Source of the DNA: Pseudomonadota bacterium
GTDB taxonomy: Bacteria; Bdellovibrionota_B; Oligoflexia; Oligoflexales; CAIYRB01
NCBI GenBank assembly: GCA_031416315.1
Contig: JANOTL010000223.1
Coordinates: 9,877-73,876 of the forward strand
Direction of reading: 5' to 3'
Length of the DNA: 64,000 bases
Shown here: positions 8,427 to 25,931 of the stretch, piece after piece
Position numbering within the stretch: the stretch's first letter is position 1
Layout of the letters: each line of letters starts with the position of its first letter
Position numbers and translations under genes: made by a program
The notes under the pieces: generated by a model
What the model was told of the DNA's origin: nothing
The model's input: the letters and a program-made list of their open reading frames with translations, nothing else
Database searches by the model: none

Positions 8427-8555
8427 TCTATGTTCCTCGGTGGTTACGTCCTGGGCCCGAGGCTCACCGCCTCAGGTTCTGCCGCCCGGGGCCGATAGGC
8501 CAAGTGGGTTACGCCTAGCCATTCTACACGACCCTGCGCAGGACCGGTTTACGGG

Positions 8556-9758
8556 ATGAGCCAACAACAGAACTTGCCCGCCAAGATTCTGATCGTCGAT
8601 GACGACCCCTCCGTGGGCCAGTCGCTCGACGAGCCGCTCGTGCGTTACGGCGTGAAGATCGACAAAGCGCCGGCGCTCGAGACCGCGCTCTACATGTTCA
8701 ACACGAACCGCTACGACGTCGTCCTGGTCGAGATCGAGTTCGCGCCGCTCGCCGGCCTCGCGTTGATCCAGAAGTGGCGGAGCCACGACACCCTCGAAAA
8801 GCGCTCGACCGCCTTCATCATGCTGAGCGGCAACAAGACCCTAGGCACCAACGAAGGCCTGATCCGCGAGCTCGGTGACCTCGAGGTGCTGGTGAAGCCC
8901 TTCGGCGCCATCCAGCTCCTCCCGTATCTAAGCCGCGCGCTCGCGACCAAGAAAAGAACGCAGGCGTACTTCGACCTCAAGACGAAGATCCTCGACTATT
9001 ACGAGAAATCGAAGGACTTCGACAAGGCCGCCGAGCAGGTCCAGAAGCGGCTCGGAGACCTTGGTCCGAAGGGCTTTCACATGCTCTACGACCTCTACGA
9101 GAAGGCAGGCCGGTTCAACGACGCGCTCGCGGTGATTAACCCTTTGCTCGACCGCGACCCGAACAACATCGCCCTCCTGAACGCCAAGGCGCGCGTGCTC
9201 ATGCGCCTCGGCAAGCTCCAGGACGCGCGGACCTGCCTCGAGAAGGCCGACGAGCTCGCGCCGCAGAACATCGACCGTCTGAACAGCATGGCCGACGCTT
9301 ACCTGAAGCTGAAAGATGCTTCCGGCACGGTGAAGACCTTCAAGAAGCTGCTGGACCTCTCGCCCGAGCAGCCGGATCTGAAGTTCGACATGTACTCGCG
9401 CCTCTACGAGAACGGCTTCGACAACGAGGCGGCGGCGTTCGGCAAAGAGACGGCGAAGCCGATGGAGATCGTTCGCCACTACAACAACAAGGGCGTCATG
9501 CTGTCGAAAGACGGCAAAATCGACGAGGCCCTCACCGAGTACCAGCGCGCCTTGCGCTTCTTCCCGAAGTTCAAAGAGAACTACCGCATCCACTTCAACA
9601 TCGCGCTCGCCAACTTGGCGCTGAAGACGCGTGAAGGCCTGGATGCCGCGCACAAGAACCTCAAGACTTGCCTCGAGCTCGCGCCCGAGTTCGACAAAGC
9701 GCTCCGGACCTTGGAAACCATTGAGAAATCGCTGACGACCAAGAAAAAGGTGTCGTGA
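8556..9758 (+). CDS. Atypical receiver domain + TPR repeat protein
   Basis: ILIVDDD...FIMLSG...KPF receiver fold with Glu at the phospho-Asp position; multiple TPR-like repeats. Confidence 0.85.
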   Translation: MSQQQNLPAKILIVDDDPSVGQSLDEPLVRYGVKIDKAPALETALYMFNTNRYDVVLVEIEFAPLAGLALIQKWRSHDTLEKRSTAFIMLSGNKTLGTNEGLIRELGDLEVLVKPFGAIQLLPYLSRALATKKRTQAYFDLKTKILDYYEKSKDFDKAAEQVQKRLGDLGPKGFHMLYDLYEKAGRFNDALAVINPLLDRDPNNIALLNAKARVLMRLGKLQDARTCLEKADELAPQNIDRLNSMADAYLKLKDASGTVKTFKKLLDLSPEQPDLKFDMYSRLYENGFDNEAAAFGKETAKPMEIVRHYNNKGVMLSKDGKIDEALTEYQRALRFFPKFKENYRIHFNIALANLALKTREGLDAAHKNLKTCLELAPEFDKALRTLETIEKSLTTKKKVS

Positions 9759-10456
9759 CCGCCATGCGCATGGACGACTCCTTCGCTGCGGTCGACTTCG
9801 CCTCCGATCCGGAAGGCGAGGACTTCGGCGAGGAGGCCGGCGGCGGCGGCGCGAGGGTCGGCCGCGGGCCGCTCGTGGCCGGCGCCCTCGCCGTCCTGGC
9901 GCTCGGCCTCTTCCTCGCGCGCGACGCCTTCCGGCCGATGGCCGCGCGCATGGCGATCGCCGCGCCGCATGAATACCTCGAGGACGAGCAGCGCTTGAGC
10001 TTCGCGCCGTGCAAGGCGACGGACCAGGATCTGGCGAAGATCGCGGCCTACTACCCGCACGCGAAAGAGGTGGTGCTCACCGGCTGCGCGGCGATCGGCC
10101 CTTCGGGCCTCAGGGGCTTGGCCCGGCTGAAGAAGCTCGAGACGCTCCGGTTCGACGGCACCAAAGGATTGGCCCCGAAGGGCTTGGCTTTCCTCGCCAA
10201 GAGCCCCGCGTTGAAGGACCTGTCGTTGCGGGGCGTGAAAATCGGAGACTCTGGCGCCCGCGCGCTCAAGGGCGCGCGCAAGCTCGAGCGCTTGGACATC
10301 TCCGGCACGAACATCACGGAGGCCGGAATGCTGAGCTTGGCCGGCCTCCCGAAGCTCAAGACCCTGGTCGTCGATCCCGCCTTCGCGAAGGCGAACGTTT
10401 TGGTCGAGATCAAAAAACAGCGCCCCGCCCTGGCGCTTTCGCTCCCCGGCCGCTGA
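9755..10456 (+). CDS. Membrane-anchored leucine-rich-repeat protein
   Basis: One TM helix then LxxLxxLxLxGxxI repeats (LERLDISGTNITEAG); GTGA overlap with the upstream stop. Confidence 0.75.
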   Translation: MTAMRMDDSFAAVDFASDPEGEDFGEEAGGGGARVGRGPLVAGALAVLALGLFLARDAFRPMAARMAIAAPHEYLEDEQRLSFAPCKATDQDLAKIAAYYPHAKEVVLTGCAAIGPSGLRGLARLKKLETLRFDGTKGLAPKGLAFLAKSPALKDLSLRGVKIGDSGARALKGARKLERLDISGTNITEAGMLSLAGLPKLKTLVVDPAFAKANVLVEIKKQRPALALSLPGR

Positions 10457-17072: not shown

Positions 17073-17633
17073 CTAGTTGGCGGGCTTTGCCGGTTTGCCA
17101 AGCGCCAGGAAGGCGCCGATCAAGTCTTCGTGCGCCGGTGATTTCACTTTCCCGGGGTTGGCGTAGTGGAAGCGGCGGTCGATTCCCTTGCCCTTGGTCG
17201 CGCGGACGAAGTCGAAGACGAGCTGGTCGAAAGCCAGCACGTTGATCGACGCGAGCTCAGCCCCCGCCAGGGCGAGCGGCCGGATCGTCTCCCATTCGCT
17301 CGCGGTGAGCGGCCGCTCGGGCTCGGCCTTCACCCGGCCGGCGGGAACGTGGACGAGGCGGGCGCCGCCGGCGTCGACGAAGATCATGAACTGTCCGGCG
17401 TCGGCCCAGCCGCCCTCGCTGAAAAGGCCGTAGCCGACCTCGGCTTTCGGGTCGGCGGCGAAGAGCTTCTCGAAGTCCTTCTGCCAGGCGGTCGCGACCT
17501 GTGCGGCGGGCACAGCTTCGGCGCTCCCGCCTTGGGCCGTGTCCTTCGCCGAGTCCTTCGTTTCAGGGCCTAAGCCCGTGATGCAGCCGCAGGCGGCGCA
17601 AAGCGCCATGAGGGCGAATAAAGCGCATCTCAT
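17073..17633 (-). CDS. Hypothetical lipoprotein
   Basis: MRCALFALMALCAACG-C signal; starts immediately after the upstream stop. Confidence 0.6.
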   Translation of the reverse strand: MRCALFALMALCAACGCITGLGPETKDSAKDTAQGGSAEAVPAAQVATAWQKDFEKLFAADPKAEVGYGLFSEGGWADAGQFMIFVDAGGARLVHVPAGRVKAEPERPLTASEWETIRPLALAGAELASINVLAFDQLVFDFVRATKGKGIDRRFHYANPGKVKSPAHEDLIGAFLALGKPAKPAN

Positions 17634-17634
17634 T

Positions 17635-17958
17635 TCAGTTCCCGTCGCAGAATTTGATCGACTTGATCGTGCGCGGGAGGCCCGGGCTCTCGATCGCGAG
17701 GTCGGCGTAGCGGAATTTCTTGCCGTAGGCACCCTTCGCGTACTCCAAGGAGGTCTGCAGCCGGCAGTCCTCCTTCATCGTCTGGCGGTTGCGCGCGCAG
17801 ACGGGGATCATCCCAGGGTCGACCTTCTCCATCATCCCGGGCTCGGCCTCGAGCACCCAGACGCAGTTCTTTCGGCCTTCCGGGTCGCAGCCCCCCATGA
17901 GGAGGCCGGCGCCGGCAAGGAGCGCTACCGAGGCGAGGTGCTGCAGAAACCTTGGCAA
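17635..17958 (-). CDS. Small Cys-containing lipoprotein
   Basis: Lipobox LMGG-C; four further Cys residues. Confidence 0.6.
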   Translation of the reverse strand: MPRFLQHLASVALLAGAGLLMGGCDPEGRKNCVWVLEAEPGMMEKVDPGMIPVCARNRQTMKEDCRLQTSLEYAKGAYGKKFRYADLAIESPGLPRTIKSIKFCDGN

Positions 17959-18041
17959 GCTTGGACCCGTCCTGGTACGAATTGAGTTTCTTGCGGCTAT
18001 TCTATTCTGGCGGCCCGCATCCGGTAAAGGACGGCTCTTCC

Positions 18042-19046
18042 ATGCGTTACGAGATCGGACGTGAGCTCTCGCGCTTCAAAGCCCTCGCCGAGCGCCTCGG
18101 CGGCGAGCCCCTGGCACCTGGCGCTTACGCTCTGCGGCCTAAGCGCATCGCCATGAGCCTGCCCGCAGGCAAGGACCTCGGACTGACCTTGATGGGGATC
18201 GTCCACGGCAACGAATGGGCCGGCTTAGCGACTCTGAACAATACGCTGTCGCTGATCGAGGCGGGCGTCGTCGAGCTCAAGATGCCCGTGGCCTTCGTGA
18301 TCGGCAACCCCGACGCGGCTCGTGAGAACAAGCGCTTCCTGGGCAAAGACTTGAACCGCTCTTTCGCGGCCAAGCCGAACGGCGGCAATATCCCGGAGGA
18401 GGCGCGCGCGCGCGAGCTCGGAAGGATCCTCGAGCGCACGGCGTACCTGGTCGACTTCCACCAGACCTCACGCTCCGGCGACCGACCCTTCTTCATCTTT
18501 CCGTACAACCGACGCAGCTTCCTGTTCGCCCGCGGGATCGCGCCGCGGAAGACGATCGTGACGCATTGGGGACGACCCTTCTCCGCCGAAGGCATGTGCT
18601 CCGACGAGTTCACCAACTCCCACGGCGGCTGCGGCGTCTCGCTGGAGCTTGGGCAAAACGGCTTCGATCCGTATCAGATCGCGGTCGGGGTCGACTGCGC
18701 CTTGTGGGCGATCGCGACGACGCAGCGCTTCCTCGAACGCGGTGAGGCGCTCTCCGCTCACGGCGATCCGGAGAGCGAGGGCGAGCTCTACACCTGGGCC
18801 GAGATCATGGACTGGCCGGCCGAAGGCAGTCACGTCGAGCTGGTCGAGGGGCTCACCAACTTCCGCGAGATCGCGGCGGGGGAGCGGCTCGGAGCCGTCG
18901 ACGGTCGACCGATTGTAGCCCGGGTCGCCGGGCGGATGCTCTTTCCGAAGTATCTGACGCGAGAGCAGCAAAACGCCTTGGAAACGCGGCCGACCGAGTT
19001 GTGCCGCTTGGTGCGGCGCATATCCGAATCGGACTTGCCGGGCTGA
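18042..19046 (+). CDS. Succinylglutamate desuccinylase/aspartoacylase (M14-like) family hydrolase
   Basis: HGNE, GNP.A...NKRF..DLNRSF, DFH and SLELGQ motifs. Confidence 0.85.
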   Translation: MRYEIGRELSRFKALAERLGGEPLAPGAYALRPKRIAMSLPAGKDLGLTLMGIVHGNEWAGLATLNNTLSLIEAGVVELKMPVAFVIGNPDAARENKRFLGKDLNRSFAAKPNGGNIPEEARARELGRILERTAYLVDFHQTSRSGDRPFFIFPYNRRSFLFARGIAPRKTIVTHWGRPFSAEGMCSDEFTNSHGGCGVSLELGQNGFDPYQIAVGVDCALWAIATTQRFLERGEALSAHGDPESEGELYTWAEIMDWPAEGSHVELVEGLTNFREIAAGERLGAVDGRPIVARVAGRMLFPKYLTREQQNALETRPTELCRLVRRISESDLPG

Positions 19047-19353: not shown

Positions 19354-21291
19354 TCATGCCGGCCTCGGCGTGAAGCTGACGCGGATCATTCCGGACTCGA
19401 TCGACATCTCGCCGCCGTAGACCTCGCGCGTCAAACGCCCGAGCCCGGCGAGGAGGTCACGATAGAAATGGTCGCCACCGAGCGTGCGGATGGGCGGCGG
19501 CGTCGGCCGCGACAACAGCTCCAGGACGGCGGGGTCGGGGAGGGCCCCGGTCTCGGAGACGAAGGCGAGCTCGAGGCGCTCGGGGAAGTCGTCGCCGCCT
19601 CGGACGCGGTAGCGCAGGCTGATCTGTTGCTCCTCGATCGCGCCCTCGTCGTCGGCAGCGAAGAGCGCCGCATAGGCGGCGATCGCCGCGATCAAGGCCT
19701 TCACGTCGAAGGCAAGAGGCATCATGACGAGGTCTTCTTCGCCCGGTTCGGGGCTCGCGACCATCGCAACACGGACGCCCATGCGGCGCAGGGCGGCGCC
19801 GTGCGTGCGGAGGAACTCGTCCATCAGCGCTCGGGCGCTGCGCGCCGTGGGAGCGAGCGAGCCCTCCTCCAGGGCCGAGGCGATGAGAATGCTACGGATC
19901 GCGAACTCCAGGCGCGCGGCGTGGCGCTCGGCCTCGCGGACGGCGCCGGCGCCACCCGCGGTCGTGCCGAGGATCGCGAGCATGCCTTGCAGCTTGGCCA
20001 CCGGCGTATTCAGATTGTGGCTCAGGAGCGAGATGAAGTTGCCCTTCAGATCGGCCGTGCGGGCGTGGACGCGCCCTTGCGCCGCGAGCCGCCACCTTTG
20101 GAAGGCGGTCAAGGAAAGGCGCGCGAAGCCGACGACGATGAAGGTCGAAAGGCCGAAGTAAGCGCAGTCGAAAAGCGGCATGTAAAGGCCGAGCTTTCTG
20201 ATGGCCAAGGCGTTGACGAAGGGACCGGCCAGCATGGCGACCAAGAACATCCCGGTCGCCGCGGTGCCGCCGAAGAGCGCCATCGCGCCGGTGATCACCA
20301 GGCAAAAAACAGCGACCGCGAGGACGACGTAGGACTGGGTCGGCAGGCGCACGGTAGCGCCGTCGAGGAACATCGAGGCGATCTGCGCCCAGAAGACGTG
20401 GAGCGGCGTGCCGGAGATCTCGGGATCGGCCTCGGCTCGGTCGTAGACGGTGCGCGTAAAACGCTTCACGTACTGGCCGCCGGCGGCGAGGGCGCCGGCC
20501 AGGTCGCTGCCGACGAAGGCGTAGCGCGCGGACGGCAGCGCGGGCAGCGCCAGGGCCTCGCGGAAGCTCAGGCGGCGGATCGTCTGCGGATCGGGGAGGT
20601 TCAGGACGTAGGCCGGCTGGATGCTCGGAAGGAGCTCGGTGAGCCAGGGTGCATCCTCTTTCTGCGGCGCGCCGCCCATCGTCTCGTTGGCGATGACGGG
20701 GAGCACCCAGTCGTCCCACTTGGCCGAGTAGGGACAGCTCGACTGCACTTTTTCGGGCAGGTCGTCGCACGGCGCGTCGTCGAGCGGCGTCGCGAGCTTG
20801 GTCAGCTCCTCCGGCAAGCGGTCGAGGTGCGCCGAGGGCGCCGCGATGTAGACCTTGGTCCTGCCGTTCTGCGCGAGCCGAGCGAGCGTCTCGACGAGCG
20901 GCAAGAGGTACACCTCGTCGAGAGGATGGGCCTCGGGATCGAGGCCTAGGAAGATCACCGGCACGTTGGCCGCCTCGAGCTTCTCGAGGATCCGCGCGTA
21001 GGAGGCGAGGGCCGCGTCGGGGACGACGCCACCCGGCGCGCGGCCCAAGACGCGCGCGTCGACGGCGTCGGCGGAGACGGCGAGGAGGGCGTCGCCGCTT
21101 TGGTCCGGGCGGCCTTTGGCGAGCTTGACGCTGAACTCGAGGAGCTTTTGCTCGGCGAGCAAGGACAAGCGCGACGAGCGCTGTCCGGAATAGACGACGT
21201 AGGTCAGCGAGGCGAAGAGGATCATCGCGACCGTGATCGGGTAAACGACGTCGAACCACCACAGCCGGTCGCGCCAGGAGCTGCGAAACAT
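19354..21291 (-). CDS. CHASE2-like membrane sensor with intact H-box but degenerate HATPase domain (phosphoacceptor pseudo-kinase)
   Basis: N-terminal TM, extracytoplasmic domain, 3 TM helices, then FISLLSHNLNTP. No recognisable N, G1 or G2 boxes downstream. Confidence 0.75.
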   Translation of the reverse strand: MFRSSWRDRLWWFDVVYPITVAMILFASLTYVVYSGQRSSRLSLLAEQKLLEFSVKLAKGRPDQSGDALLAVSADAVDARVLGRAPGGVVPDAALASYARILEKLEAANVPVIFLGLDPEAHPLDEVYLLPLVETLARLAQNGRTKVYIAAPSAHLDRLPEELTKLATPLDDAPCDDLPEKVQSSCPYSAKWDDWVLPVIANETMGGAPQKEDAPWLTELLPSIQPAYVLNLPDPQTIRRLSFREALALPALPSARYAFVGSDLAGALAAGGQYVKRFTRTVYDRAEADPEISGTPLHVFWAQIASMFLDGATVRLPTQSYVVLAVAVFCLVITGAMALFGGTAATGMFLVAMLAGPFVNALAIRKLGLYMPLFDCAYFGLSTFIVVGFARLSLTAFQRWRLAAQGRVHARTADLKGNFISLLSHNLNTPVAKLQGMLAILGTTAGGAGAVREAERHAARLEFAIRSILIASALEEGSLAPTARSARALMDEFLRTHGAALRRMGVRVAMVASPEPGEEDLVMMPLAFDVKALIAAIAAYAALFAADDEGAIEEQQISLRYRVRGGDDFPERLELAFVSETGALPDPAVLELLSRPTPPPIRTLGGDHFYRDLLAGLGRLTREVYGGEMSIESGMIRVSFTPRPA

Positions 21292-23219
21292 CAGGCCCCC
21301 TTCGCTTTCTGGAGGGCGAGCGTGAACTCGGCGCCTTTGCCGGGGGTCGAGCTGAGGTCGATCGCGGCGCCGATCTGGTCGGCGAAATACTTGCTCAGGT
21401 AAAGGCCCAGGCCGTGGCCTTTCAGCTTGTAAACCGAGTCGTCCTTCACGCGGTAGAACTTCTCGAAGATCCGCTCGTGGAACTCCGGCGAGATGCCGGG
21501 GCCCTGGTCCGCGACGCGGATGAGGAGACGACCGGGCGCGGGCTCGACGCGGATGGCGACGCGGCCGCCGACGGGCGAGTACTTCACCGCGTTGGAGACG
21601 AGGTTGTAGAGGATCTGCGAGAGAAGCGTGGGATCGGCGAGGGCGCTCGCGGTGTTAGCGACACCGTCGGCGACGTCGACCTCGATCGCGACCTTGCCCT
21701 CCGAGGCGCGCGACTCGAACTGGCGCACGACTTTCTGCACGACGGCCAAAGAGTCGATCCTGGCGAGGGGCAGGCGCTTCTTCTCCTGATAGGTGCCCCC
21801 AGCGGCGAATTTGGCGAACTGCTGGATGCCGTTCAGGTAGTCGTCGAGCTCCTCGCAGCTTCCCAAGGCGCGCACGAGCGCGTCTTTCGGCGTGCCTTCG
21901 AGGTCTTTCAAGGCCGAAGACGTCTCGAGCGCGGCGCGCGCGCGACGGTTGATCGCGGCGAGCTCCTCGGCGAAACGGTCGAGAAAGCGCTCTTGGATGG
22001 CGGCCAGCTCACCCTCCGATTTGGCGATGGCTTCGTGCTCGGCGCGCATGCGGGCCTCGAGACCGAGCCGCCGCAGGGCGCCGTAGGTCATCGCGAGGGA
22101 CGAGAAGAGCGCCGCGTCGGCGAGCGGGAGGTAGCGGTTGAGCCAGGCGAAGGCGGCGGCGTGGAGGAGGAGGAGGAGGGACCACCCGCCGATGAAGAGG
22201 AAGGAGGCGAAGCCGACGCTGGATTTCCAGATGAGCAAGGTCGCGACGGTGATGATGAAGGTCTGAAAGAGGTCGAAGGGGCGGGGAACGTCGCGTAGGA
22301 ATTTGTTTTGCGTGAGGTTCGCCAGGGCGACGCCTTGGACGTGGACGACCGGGATGCCGTCGGCCAGGTCCTCGCCGTCCATCTGCCAAGGCGAGTTGAC
22401 GAACGTGGCCTCGCGGTCGTGCGAGGTCCAGTTGCGCCAGGAGGTGTAACCGATGAGCAGCGTCTTGCCCTTAAGCTCGGCCAAGGTCGCGGGCTGTGCG
22501 ACCGCGAGCGACTCCGCTTTCCACGTGGCGAGCTGGCTCGGATGGAAGTAGTTGAGCTTCACCGCCGTACGGTCCTCGGGGAGGCGCCTCGCCTCGCCAC
22601 GCTCGGGAGCGAGAAAGCTCAGGTCCACGCCTTTGCGCGCCGCCAGGAGATAGGGAAGGAAGGGGAGCTCGCCCTCTTCCTTGACGACGAAGTCGCGGAC
22701 GATCTCGCGGCGGTAGTAGCGCGTGACGTCCGCCTTCGCGAGCTGGTCGGGAATCTTCTTGAAAGCCGCGGGGAGAAGCTCCGGCGATTGATTCTTCACC
22801 GAGAGGTCGAAGACCCCGATGACGAGGCGGCGGTCGCGGACCGCTAAGGCGGCGAGCTCTTCGGCCTGCGGGTCGCCGTACGGAAAGATCTGGTTCGGGA
22901 CGAGGACGGCGATGTGCGCGGCGTCGGTTAAAAGAGCGGCGCGGACGACGCGCAGAAGCGAGCGCCACGACAGATTGCGGGGCTTCGTGCGGTTCTTCTC
23001 GAGGTCGGGGCCGTCGAGCTCGGTGGTGGTCCAGTCGTCGATGGCGATGACGCCTAAGTCCGAGGTGTCGATCGAGGTCGGGGCCAAGCGCGTACGGATG
23101 TCGAAGAGCTTGCTCTCGACGCGGTCGCGTAGGGGCGAGCTGTTGTAAACGTAAAGGAAGAGGGCGCCGACGACGGCGGCGAAGGCGAGAAGGAGCGCGT
23201 TGGCGATCTTGTCACGCAT
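21291..23219 (-). CDS. CHASE2 membrane histidine kinase with intact HATPase domain but no phospho-His
   Basis: CHASE2 hallmarks (ESKLFDIR, VIAIDD, ELKGKTLLIG, PVVHVQG); NLVSNAVKYS, DQGPGI, IFEKFYRV and GHGLGL boxes. The H-box position reads FAEELAAI. Confidence 0.85.
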   Translation of the reverse strand: MRDKIANALLLAFAAVVGALFLYVYNSSPLRDRVESKLFDIRTRLAPTSIDTSDLGVIAIDDWTTTELDGPDLEKNRTKPRNLSWRSLLRVVRAALLTDAAHIAVLVPNQIFPYGDPQAEELAALAVRDRRLVIGVFDLSVKNQSPELLPAAFKKIPDQLAKADVTRYYRREIVRDFVVKEEGELPFLPYLLAARKGVDLSFLAPERGEARRLPEDRTAVKLNYFHPSQLATWKAESLAVAQPATLAELKGKTLLIGYTSWRNWTSHDREATFVNSPWQMDGEDLADGIPVVHVQGVALANLTQNKFLRDVPRPFDLFQTFIITVATLLIWKSSVGFASFLFIGGWSLLLLLHAAAFAWLNRYLPLADAALFSSLAMTYGALRRLGLEARMRAEHEAIAKSEGELAAIQERFLDRFAEELAAINRRARAALETSSALKDLEGTPKDALVRALGSCEELDDYLNGIQQFAKFAAGGTYQEKKRLPLARIDSLAVVQKVVRQFESRASEGKVAIEVDVADGVANTASALADPTLLSQILYNLVSNAVKYSPVGGRVAIRVEPAPGRLLIRVADQGPGISPEFHERIFEKFYRVKDDSVYKLKGHGLGLYLSKYFADQIGAAIDLSSTPGKGAEFTLALQKAKGA

Positions 23220-24586
23220 CAGGCGGAGAGGAGCTCAGGGGCGCGCTCGAGGAGGATCGCGTAGACCCGCATCGCTTGCTCGATCTCGACCGCTTGCAGG
23301 CGGCAGAACATCGGGTCGACCGCGAACGTGTCGCCGGTGGCGGCCTTGTTCTCGTGCAGGCAGCCGCCGGCGCACCATTCGCGCATCCAGCAGGTGTCGC
23401 ACGGGGCCTTTTTTGCCTCGCGAAAGGCGGAAACCGCGTCGAGCTTCTTCTGATCGAGGCCGTGCAAGACGTCGCCGAAGCGCTCGGACTCGTCCTCGTT
23501 GAAGCGGTGGCAGAGGTGGAAGGCGCCCTCGGCCGAGACGGTGAGGTAGTTGACGCCGGCGCCGCAGGCTTTGCCGCCGGTCTTGCCGTCGCGGATGTTC
23601 AGAAGGTGCTTCTTGACGTTGTCCAAGCGCAGGAGCGCCTTGAAGTCCCCCGCCTCGACCAGGCGGTCGATGACCTTGACGTAGACGGCGGCGAGCTTCG
23701 CCGCGTCGGCCTCGGTGAAATGGAAGACCTTGAGCGGCGAGGCCTGATGATAGACCGCGAGGCGGTAGTTGTGCGTCGTCAGCGTCTTCAGGATCGCCTC
23801 CTCGAGGAGGTTCACGTTGTCGCGCATGACGGTGGAGCGCAGGATGAAGCTGCGGAGGCTCGCGAGCTGCTCTTGGAAGGCGCGCAGCTTTTTCTCGACG
23901 ACGGGCTCGGACGACTGCTGGCCCACCATCGGGCGCTGCTTCGCCTGCAGGCCGTGGCCGTCGTAAGAGAGGGTGACCGAGACCTTCTTTGCCTTGAGCC
24001 ACGCGAGCTTCTCGTCGTTCAAAAGAGTGCCGTTCGTGGTGACGGCATAGCTGAAGCGCGTGCCGGTGGCGGCTTCGCGCGCCTCGCACCAAGTGACGAC
24101 GTCTTTCATGACGGGGTAGTTGAGGAAGGGCTCGCCGCCGAAAAAGATGACGTGAAAGTAGGCTTTGTCCTTGGTCAGGAGCTCGAGCGCGGCGACGGCC
24201 GTGTCCAGCTTCATCAAGCCCTTGTTGCCGTAGTCGCCTTCGCCGGCGAAACAGTAGAGACAGCGCAGATTGCAGCCTTGCGCCAGGTTGAGCGAGCAGG
24301 CGACGACGTCGGTCTTCACGTCCCGGGGCGGAGGCATCGGCAGGCCGCGCGCGATCTCGTCGAGCTCGGCGTCGGCCCCTTCCACGGACTCGCGGCCTTG
24401 GACGTGGCGGATGAGCTCATCGGGCGCTTCGAGGACGTGCGCCGAGGGAACGTGGAGGAGGAAGCCGGCGTCGAAGGCCTTCCAGACGCCCCGGAAAGCT
24501 CGCACTTCCGACGCGACGCGGGCTTCCAGCTCGAGGTCACGAGCGTCGGCGGCGAGCGAGGCGGTTGCGGGTGCGATCGGTGTCAT
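23219..24586 (-). CDS. Radical SAM/SPASM peptide maturase (CteB/SCIFF thioether-forming type)
   Basis: CNLRCLYC, FFGGEP and TTNGTLL motifs; SPASM C-x17-C...CxxC-x5-C-x3-C-x18-C; RRE-like N-terminus. Confidence 0.9.
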   Translation of the reverse strand: MTPIAPATASLAADARDLELEARVASEVRAFRGVWKAFDAGFLLHVPSAHVLEAPDELIRHVQGRESVEGADAELDEIARGLPMPPPRDVKTDVVACSLNLAQGCNLRCLYCFAGEGDYGNKGLMKLDTAVAALELLTKDKAYFHVIFFGGEPFLNYPVMKDVVTWCEAREAATGTRFSYAVTTNGTLLNDEKLAWLKAKKVSVTLSYDGHGLQAKQRPMVGQQSSEPVVEKKLRAFQEQLASLRSFILRSTVMRDNVNLLEEAILKTLTTHNYRLAVYHQASPLKVFHFTEADAAKLAAVYVKVIDRLVEAGDFKALLRLDNVKKHLLNIRDGKTGGKACGAGVNYLTVSAEGAFHLCHRFNEDESERFGDVLHGLDQKKLDAVSAFREAKKAPCDTCWMREWCAGGCLHENKAATGDTFAVDPMFCRLQAVEIEQAMRVYAILLERAPELLSA

Positions 24587-24645: not shown

Positions 24646-24731
24646 CGTAGATGCCAAACTCGGGGCGCGTCCCAGCAGCCATTGAGCAAGAACGATACCA
24701 TATAAGGAAGCCTGTCCTGGGAGGAGCCTCG

Positions 24732-25931
24732 GTGCATCGTCTCGGCCTCATTTTTGGTCTCTTTTTGGCCGCGTCGCTGGCGCTGGCGCAGGGCGGCGCC
24801 TTGCCCAAGGGCGACCTCGGTACGGTCGACCAGGGGAAGGTGAAGGCGCCTTCGGCGCCGAAAGGCGAGGCGCGCCGCAACTGCCTTCTCGACTCGCTGC
24901 GCCCGACCGGAGGCAGCGGCGTGTGGAGCGCCACGGGCGACGCCTTCTATTTGCTCGCGAGCCGAGGGCCGACCGCGAAGATGCAGAAGAAGGGCGCCGA
25001 GTCGCTGAAAACGAAGTACACGCTCTACAAGCTCACGATGAAGGGGCGGAAGGTCGAGGCGCTGCTGTCGCTCGACCACAAGGGCGACGCGACGCTCGTC
25101 GCCTTCGGTAGCGGCGAGGAGCTCACCGGCATCTCCGCGGTCTCGTTCATCGGCAAGAGCATGGGCTGCAACGAAGGCCCCGCCGGCATGGTGAGCATCT
25201 CGATGCAGGGCGGCAAAGCCGTGCAGGGGACGGGACAGTTCGCGCTCGCAGCGGGGCCGATGGGGCGCACGCTGATCGACGCAAAAAAGCTGAACGTGCT
25301 CGAGATGGACACGTCGAACTTCCAGACGCGCTCGGTGCGGGCGCTCAAGGACTTCGAGCGGCCCCTTTGGTTCGATGGCGGCGCGCGTCGGCTCGTCACG
25401 TTCCGCGACGACGGCAAGGTCCGCGGGCTCGTCGATTACAAGTCGGAAGACGACAAGAAGGCGCGGAAGCTCGCATTCAAGCCGGAGGAGCGCGCTCTGC
25501 AGCAGAAAGACCTCTTCGGCATGGCGCGGCTCGACGCGGCGAAGAACGCGATCGAGATCCAGGAGCTCCCCGAGTGGTCGGGACAGAAGGAGCCGCAGAG
25601 CTTCCGCGTCGTGCTGCCGGGGGCGTTCGCGGTGGCGACCGCGGGCGTCGACATCCACTTCGAGAAGCGCCTGGCGCTCGTTTCCGGCGGAACTTTCGTC
25701 GCGCGGCAGCAGTGGCAGAAGCTTTTCGTTTTCGCGTACCAGCGCCAGGATCCGCTCTTCGTGATCAGCGCGCCCGGCAAGCAATACGTGAGCTTTGCCG
25801 CGTTCGATCCGACGGGTGCTTACGCGGCGGTCGAGGCGCGCGACATCGAGTCGCGGGCGACGACGAGCTTCAAGATCTTCGACGTGGCGAAGAAGAAGAT
25901 CGAGGAGATCAAGCTGCCGGCGCCGAAGTGA
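24732..25931 (+). CDS. Secreted hypothetical protein (possible beta-propeller)
   Basis: GAGGAG RBS, GTG start, signal peptide LALA-Q; WSATG and FDPTG repeat-like motifs. Confidence 0.65.
   Translation: MHRLGLIFGLFLAASLALAQGGALPKGDLGTVDQGKVKAPSAPKGEARRNCLLDSLRPTGGSGVWSATGDAFYLLASRGPTAKMQKKGAESLKTKYTLYKLTMKGRKVEALLSLDHKGDATLVAFGSGEELTGISAVSFIGKSMGCNEGPAGMVSISMQGGKAVQGTGQFALAAGPMGRTLIDAKKLNVLEMDTSNFQTRSVRALKDFERPLWFDGGARRLVTFRDDGKVRGLVDYKSEDDKKARKLAFKPEERALQQKDLFGMARLDAAKNAIEIQELPEWSGQKEPQSFRVVLPGAFAVATAGVDIHFEKRLALVSGGTFVARQQWQKLFVFAYQRQDPLFVISAPGKQYVSFAAFDPTGAYAAVEARDIESRATTSFKIFDVAKKKIEEIKLPAPK

Follow-up and report, generated by a model that had tools for sequence, protein, structure and literature searches.

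The 64,000-nucleotide stretch of DNA analysed here (the window: positions 9,877 to 73,876 of the forward strand of contig JANOTL010000223.1, assembly GCA_031416315.1, from an Oligoflexales bacterium) carries on its minus strand two neighbouring genes, HK1 and HK2, for full-length membrane sensor kinases, neither of which is complete (Table 1). A one-base stop/start overlap, TGATG, couples HK1 to HK2, and the same overlap joins HK1 to the radical SAM/SPASM gene before it. A sequence-only reading of the window had given the coordinates and coupling of the two kinase genes as we find them, and had described their products as a complementary pair, HK1 with the ATP-binding motifs but no phosphorylatable histidine and HK2 with the histidine but no ATP-binding motifs. 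That split is strongly supported by what follows, as the reciprocal loss is conserved and the two genes co-occur and are adjacent.

Table 1. Genes and sequence features of the HK1-HK2 locus and its surroundings; positions are those of the window.
Feature	Position	Strand	Remarks
HK1	21291..23219	minus	642 aa; membrane sensor (CHASE2 by orthologues), DHp without His, intact ATP-binding domain
HK1 HATPase_c domain	21306..21635	minus	N, G1, F and G2 boxes; Pfam match
HK1 DHp helix 2 motif	21825..21851	minus	ELDDYLNGI (residues 457-465); Asp460 in place of ancestral Arg
HK1 Glu418 codon	21966..21968	minus	At the phospho-His position; HK853 alignment and HK1/HK2 profile alignment
HK2	19354..21291	minus	645 aa; membrane sensor (divergent CHASE2), H-box, degenerate ATPase-like domain
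HK2 pseudo-ATPase domain	19357..19857	minus	Kinase ATPase fold predicted, catalytic motifs absent
HK2 H-box	20002..20022	minus	SHNLNTP; His425, H+1 Asn426, H+4 Thr429
Radical SAM/SPASM gene	23219..24586	minus	Coupled to HK1; optional companion
Receiver-TPR gene	8499..9755	plus	VLVEIEF, Glu for phospho-Asp; paralogue on contig C117

HK1 matches the Pfam family HATPase_c (3e-27) but not HisKA. The N, G1 and G2 residues N539, N543, D571, G573, G601, G603 and G605 are present in all 51 HK1s of the fetched loci, and the phospho-His of HK853 aligns with Glu418, bearing out the complete boxes and missing histidine claimed from the sequence. This column is variable in the HK1 orthologues and holds a histidine in only 1 of the 51. 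That exception, locus L066 (9065-10858, minus strand), reads LTHSLKN, lacks the rest of the H-box and has a normal HK2 partner. The sequence-only reading had named an alternative aligned histidine in HK1 as fatal to its case; in the cytoplasmic part no other conserved histidine column was found, the highest reaching 18/51 and lying within the ATPase domain.

HK2 is the mirror image. It matches HisKA only (8e-5, under the curated cut-off) and not HATPase_c. Among the HK2s that cover the H-box, His425 and the threonine four residues further on (H+4, Thr429) are invariant (51/51 each) and the residue after the histidine (H+1) is Asn in 50/51; a 52nd HK2 ends before the H-box. The models of both proteins are confident (mean pLDDT 90 each), and the C-terminal part of the HK2 model superposes on the catalytic domain of ThkA (Z 11.6, rmsd 3.5, 143 residues aligned). 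HK2 thus appears to retain the fold of an ATPase domain from which the N, G1 and G2 motifs have gone, and neither it nor the His-less HK1 is by itself a canonical HisKA kinase.

One check suggested with the sequence-only reading was whether the two losses co-occur in homologous pairs, and they do. Among aligned relatives HisKA was detected in 43/46 HK2s and 0/40 HK1s, HATPase_c in 40/40 HK1s and 0/46 HK2s. Of 131 genomes from the phylum, 51 yielded both genes, 77 neither and three a single one; in these three, either the gene itself reaches the end of its contig or a contig end truncates a partner that is there. Orthologues standing singly, which had been named as a second possible objection, are therefore confined to contig-end cases. 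Of the 52 HK2 loci, 50 have HK1 directly upstream and two are at contig ends. Since the genomes counted are related, these numbers should not be read as so many independent cases. Scanning 185,579 genomes with a pattern yielded 45 loci; Oligoflexales appears in many of their titles, and others are labelled loosely or in conflicting ways. Taken singly, each gene looks defective, as would be expected of decaying remnants or an assembly artefact, but the frames are open and full-length, the remaining motifs are invariant across two orders and the dead domain still folds in the model. These conservation data refute decay or artefact, to which we give almost no weight: on the sequence evidence the reciprocal loss is a conserved trait.

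The two proteins are homologous, although this is visible only by profiles, because a direct BLAST of HK1 against HK2 gave no match. Their profiles align with a probability of 99.75 over 597 columns at 14% identity, and Glu418 pairs with His425. The sequence-only reading had given both a TM-CHASE2-3TM layout. The one N-terminal and three following membrane helices fit hydropathy and the models (the last helix of HK1 lies below the hydropathy threshold used), but Pfam detects no CHASE2 in either window protein. The domain between these helices is identified through orthologues and models, with CHASE2 detected in 32/40 HK1 and 8/46 HK2 orthologues. In fold searches, for which the sensor was not folded apart, every match was to the kinase part and none of the solved structures extended over the sensor domain.

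Searching 1.84 billion proteins by profile brought up a third group, 555 proteins that combine an H-box with a complete ATPase; they are Bdellovibrionales wherever the source names an organism. The exact H-box SHDLKTP occurs in 125 of the 127 examined. Two genomes of a sister order hold a tandem pair in a half-way state: their HK1 has Lys or Gln at the histidine position, while their HK2 has lost the G1 Asp but kept the N, F and G2 boxes. A quick, unrooted tree of 64 of the aligned rows has three groups: the HK1s together with those of the sister order (support 92), the HK2s likewise (93), and the intact proteins (97). Duplication of an intact CHASE2 kinase gene is the likely origin and the simplest reading. 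On that reading, ancestor, intermediate and loss states of the pair are all extant in genomes.

Why the split was kept is a separate question from how the pair works. The sequence-only reading had proposed a two-signal AND gate or ligand-induced heterodimer, each sensor with its own ligand, which is compatible with a heterodimeric mechanism. Both sensors are full-length and strongly diverged, as the blank BLAST search and low profile identity show, and HK2 has its own invariant pair of cysteines, Cys175 and Cys186. In the HK2 sensor, however, several ancestral CHASE2 residues still present in HK1 have gone, which is reflected in the Pfam counts, and the stepwise losses of the sister order are the expected remains of a neutral ratchet from homomer to heteromer. 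Complementary losses, accumulating step by step in duplicated genes, can establish a heteromer that brings no new logic (PMC11066126, PMC10888846). Nothing points to two ligands, and a constitutive heterodimer arising after duplication gives the same pattern. We consider a selected AND gate unlikely.

The retention of ancestral residues shows how the kinase was divided. Scored on residues conserved in 20 intact proteins, for 42 HK1s and 42 HK2s (10 partial or frameshifted loci were left out), retention in DHp helix 1 is 0.20 in HK1 against 0.59 in HK2, and in the ATPase domain 0.56 against 0.10. Overall retention in helix 2 is similar (0.41 in HK1, 0.35 in HK2), but the helix-2 acid at 457 (98%) and Tyr at 461 (94%) are kept in HK1s and variable in HK2s. 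By these scores the ancestral residues are divided, the histidine helix going to HK2 and the second helix and ATPase to HK1. Because helix 1 is kept in HK2 and the helix-2 acid and Tyr in HK1, HK2 helix 1 and HK1 helix 2, which leads to the HK1 ATPase, appear to make up one conserved face. Such a composite face fits the expectation for trans-phosphorylation in a heterodimer.

The two proteins might instead form separate homodimers, HK2 acting as a membrane-anchored ChpT-like phosphotransferase and HK1 either as a pseudokinase like DivL or, as in CheA3/CheA4, as an ATPase that acts transiently in trans. HK2 has the His-bearing DHp and degenerate ATPase fold of ChpT-like proteins and its architecture matches bacterial phosphotransferase structures (4qpj, Z 9.4; 4fpp, Z 8.9); the HK1 model matches DivL, and the hydrophobic DHp cores are kept in both. 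A ChpT-like phosphotransferase is a soluble homodimer fed by a receiver domain; HK2 is membrane-anchored, with no donor receiver conserved nearby, which does not decide the comparison. Ordinary kinases, however, match at least as well as the phosphotransferases (Z up to 13), and conservation of helix 1 only in HK2 and of helix 2 mainly in HK1 suggests a single composite face. Moreover, neither a hybrid kinase nor a receiver is conserved next to HK1 and HK2. Separate homodimers seem distinctly improbable.

The operon of the pair contains no receiver, as the sequence-only reading had reported. The sole receiver on the 74-kb contig, in the receiver-TPR protein about 10 kb away, has Glu at its phospho-Asp site and lies near the pair in only 3/41 loci, and we rejected it as the partner. 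The outgroup offers a better candidate. In both full-length intact-kinase loci with context (L131 and L132) a single kinase gene is followed directly by a gene for an NtrC-like REC-sigma54-HTH regulator. This regulator has one clear orthologue in the present genome, on another contig (G000:C203:26361-27815; 521 bits against 319 for the next match); its phospho-Asp is intact, and next to it no kinase ORF is evident. The NtrC-like regulator was found in 48 of the 54 kinase-bearing genomes and in 18 others, 16 of which form a clade that lacks the pair. The Mg-binding Asp of its receiver is kept in all 29 pair-bearing genomes examined and lost in 16/16 of the pair-less clade. From these data the orphan NtrC-like protein can be predicted to be the response regulator of the pair. 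In the pair-less clade (L242-L257) the phospho-Asp and Lys of the regulator are still there, but the Mg-binding Asp is gone and the first helix has diverged; the regulator is possibly phosphorylation-independent.

We propose, with a probability of roughly 0.6, that HK1 and HK2 form an obligate heterodimeric kinase feeding this orphan sigma-54 activator. Trans-phosphorylation from HK1 to HK2 is, we infer, the likeliest mechanism. The two DHp hairpins would pack into a four-helix bundle that has just one active face, where the HK1 ATPase would phosphorylate His425 of HK2 in trans, and the phosphate would pass from there to the NtrC-like protein. The invariant H+4 Thr would give phosphatase activity in the off state. 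More speculatively, the general base absent from H+1 of HK2 might be supplied by helix 2 of HK1, from Asp460 or Glu457.

A number of observations weigh against this proposal. H+1 is Asn in 163 and Asp in five of 172 HK2-type proteins (four are fragments without the H-box), so HK2 lacks the acid of a canonical HisKA kinase; of the 72 canonical kinases that were aligned from this genome, 71 have Glu or Asp at H+1 (86 ATPase matches, less 11 without a pattern match, HK1 included, and three false matches). The Glu that the HWE-style rule places in the N-box was sought in HK1 as a substitute acid and is absent, residue 539 being Asn. The regulator link comes from two outgroup loci (the metagenome scan covered 1/64 parts and gave two full-length intact loci among 80). 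Six pair-bearing genomes gave no match to the regulator, two other pair-less genomes (84-85% complete) have an intact receiver with no pair detected, and decay of the receiver in the pair-less clade is one evolutionary event, not sixteen. The unrooted tree leaves the order of duplication unproven. The H+1 acid is the general base for autophosphorylation and the H+4 Thr a phosphatase determinant (PMC3904827, PMC7005713, PMC8292422), and other HisKA proteins that lose the acid are no longer active as kinases (PMC3904827, PMC8292422). The sequence-only reading had overlooked the Asn; its split stands, while the phosphorylation in trans that it drew from the split is complicated by this residue.

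The same residues raise the possibility of a heterodimer that works as a signal-regulated phosphatase and has little autokinase activity or none. HK2 would then provide the His/Thr motif and docking of the regulator, and the nucleotide-bound ATPase of HK1 would stimulate dephosphorylation. A non-acidic H+1 (Asn426) and polar H+4 (Thr429), nearly invariant as we have seen, make up the sequence signature of a DrBphP-like phosphatase. DrBphP, with its non-acidic H+1, is an ATP-dependent phosphatase (PMC8292422), and the phosphatase activity of HK853 is stimulated by nucleotide (PMC7005713). Decay of the receiver on loss of the pair is, however, more natural if the pair is a phospho-donor, and no other kinase ORF is evident near the regulator. 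In addition, the five Asp-at-H+1 forms are nested among Asn forms in the tree, so Asn and Asp appear interchangeable at this position. We take such a phosphatase-biased heterodimer to be a serious alternative, though an unlikely one.

If the heterodimer is a kinase, the acid may have moved to the partner. The intact group has Arg (90%) at the helix-2 position where HK1 has an acid in 46/51, and by helix register this position would sit opposite H+1. The only pair with Asp at H+1 of HK2 has an HK1 without that acid. Glu457 is weakened as a newly gained substitute base, since it is ancestral. In such an obligate heterodimer of reciprocally dead full-length paralogues HK2 would give the His, and HK1 both the ATP and an activating acid from helix 2. 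The idea is based on one H-D pair, three of 49 H-N pairs lack an acid at both HK1 459 and HK1 460, and the HK1s of the sister order, with Thr at 460, carry the acid at 459 instead; relocation of the acid is a tentative suggestion, possible rather than probable.

Several other genes lie around the pair. The radical SAM/SPASM protein has PapB as its top NCBIfam match (222 bits, below the 340 cut-off), and its gene occurs in 25/131 genomes, all pair-bearing and always with it directly upstream of HK1. It was rejected as a required component, with no match in 29 of the 54 kinase-bearing genomes. A PapB-like gene lies 5.8 kb upstream of one sister-order HK1 (L073). Downstream of HK2 (window 17073-19046) are an AstE/AspA-family gene and two small lipoprotein-like genes, found in about a third of loci. 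A divergently transcribed gene with a secreted-looking product (window 24651-25931, plus strand), which has no match in Pfam or NCBIfam, adjoins the radical SAM gene in 14/41 loci. A sigma-70 scan placed two sites downstream of HK2 and gave nothing informative on the pair. A few copies of the pair itself are unusual. A congeneric genome has a second, divergent HK1-HK2 copy on a short contig (L049, G001:C136; about 35% identity), by duplication, transfer or binning error. In three assemblies a stop or frameshift, through sequencing error or early decay, interrupts HK1 (L040, 3360-5347; L056, 7382-9199; L061, 3533-6510), and in L061 it interrupts HK2 as well.

If the proposal is right, the pair is a natural case of a homodimeric receptor becoming a two-subunit receptor. 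It would amount to the trans-complementation experiment carried out in nature across a lineage, each dimer having one active face only. As the intact gene, the half-degenerate pair and a pair-less clade can all be sampled, the transition from homomer to heteromer, by selected logic or neutral ratchet, becomes testable in a signalling protein. The pair also bears on whether the H+1 acid is truly indispensable for autophosphorylation, and is a caution for annotation: two 'broken' kinases can be one working unit.

Our literature search, with most subscription journals and supplements outside its coverage, found no paper on paired full-length paralogous receptors with reciprocal loss, and none characterising the intact Bdellovibrionales kinase. 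That CHASE2-HisKA-HATPase protein (L131, L132) has the same domain order as the pair, an H-box almost the same as that of HK2 and an ATPase like that of HK1, but is a single gene with all motifs, Asp at H+1 and an adjacent NtrC-like regulator. Split kinases are already known, and by sequence HK1 and HK2, with ATPase and phospho-acceptor on separate, co-occurring proteins, belong among them. Rv0600c and Rv0601c of Mycobacterium tuberculosis are said to carry the ATPase on one protein and the His on the other, as two short pieces of one kinase, whereas HK1 and HK2 are complete paralogues, each with its own sensor and DHp. Those two kinase proteins likewise serve one regulator, TcrA (PMC3544749). 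DrBphP of Deinococcus shares the non-acidic H+1 and ATP-binding domain, but is a one-protein homodimeric phosphatase with His at H+1 and Glu at H+4 (PMC8292422), where HK2 has Asn and Thr.

The usual view of sensor kinases is that they are homodimers, and reports of heterodimers are few (PMC9491836). RetS/GacS, ChrS/HrrS and DivL are heterodimerising kinases or catalysis-free partner regulators, with at least one partner a complete homodimeric kinase (PMC12189002, PMC9491836), whereas neither HK1 nor HK2 is complete. Many HisKA proteins lack an ATPase (PMC3591291). In CheA3/CheA4 of Rhodobacter sphaeroides the ATP site and phospho-acceptor are likewise on two proteins, neither of which autophosphorylates alone (PMC3591291). 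These are soluble CheA-class proteins with whole domains missing and an HPt acceptor, while HK1 and HK2 are full-length membrane receptors of the HisKA class, alike in layout, whose reciprocal loss is at the level of residues.

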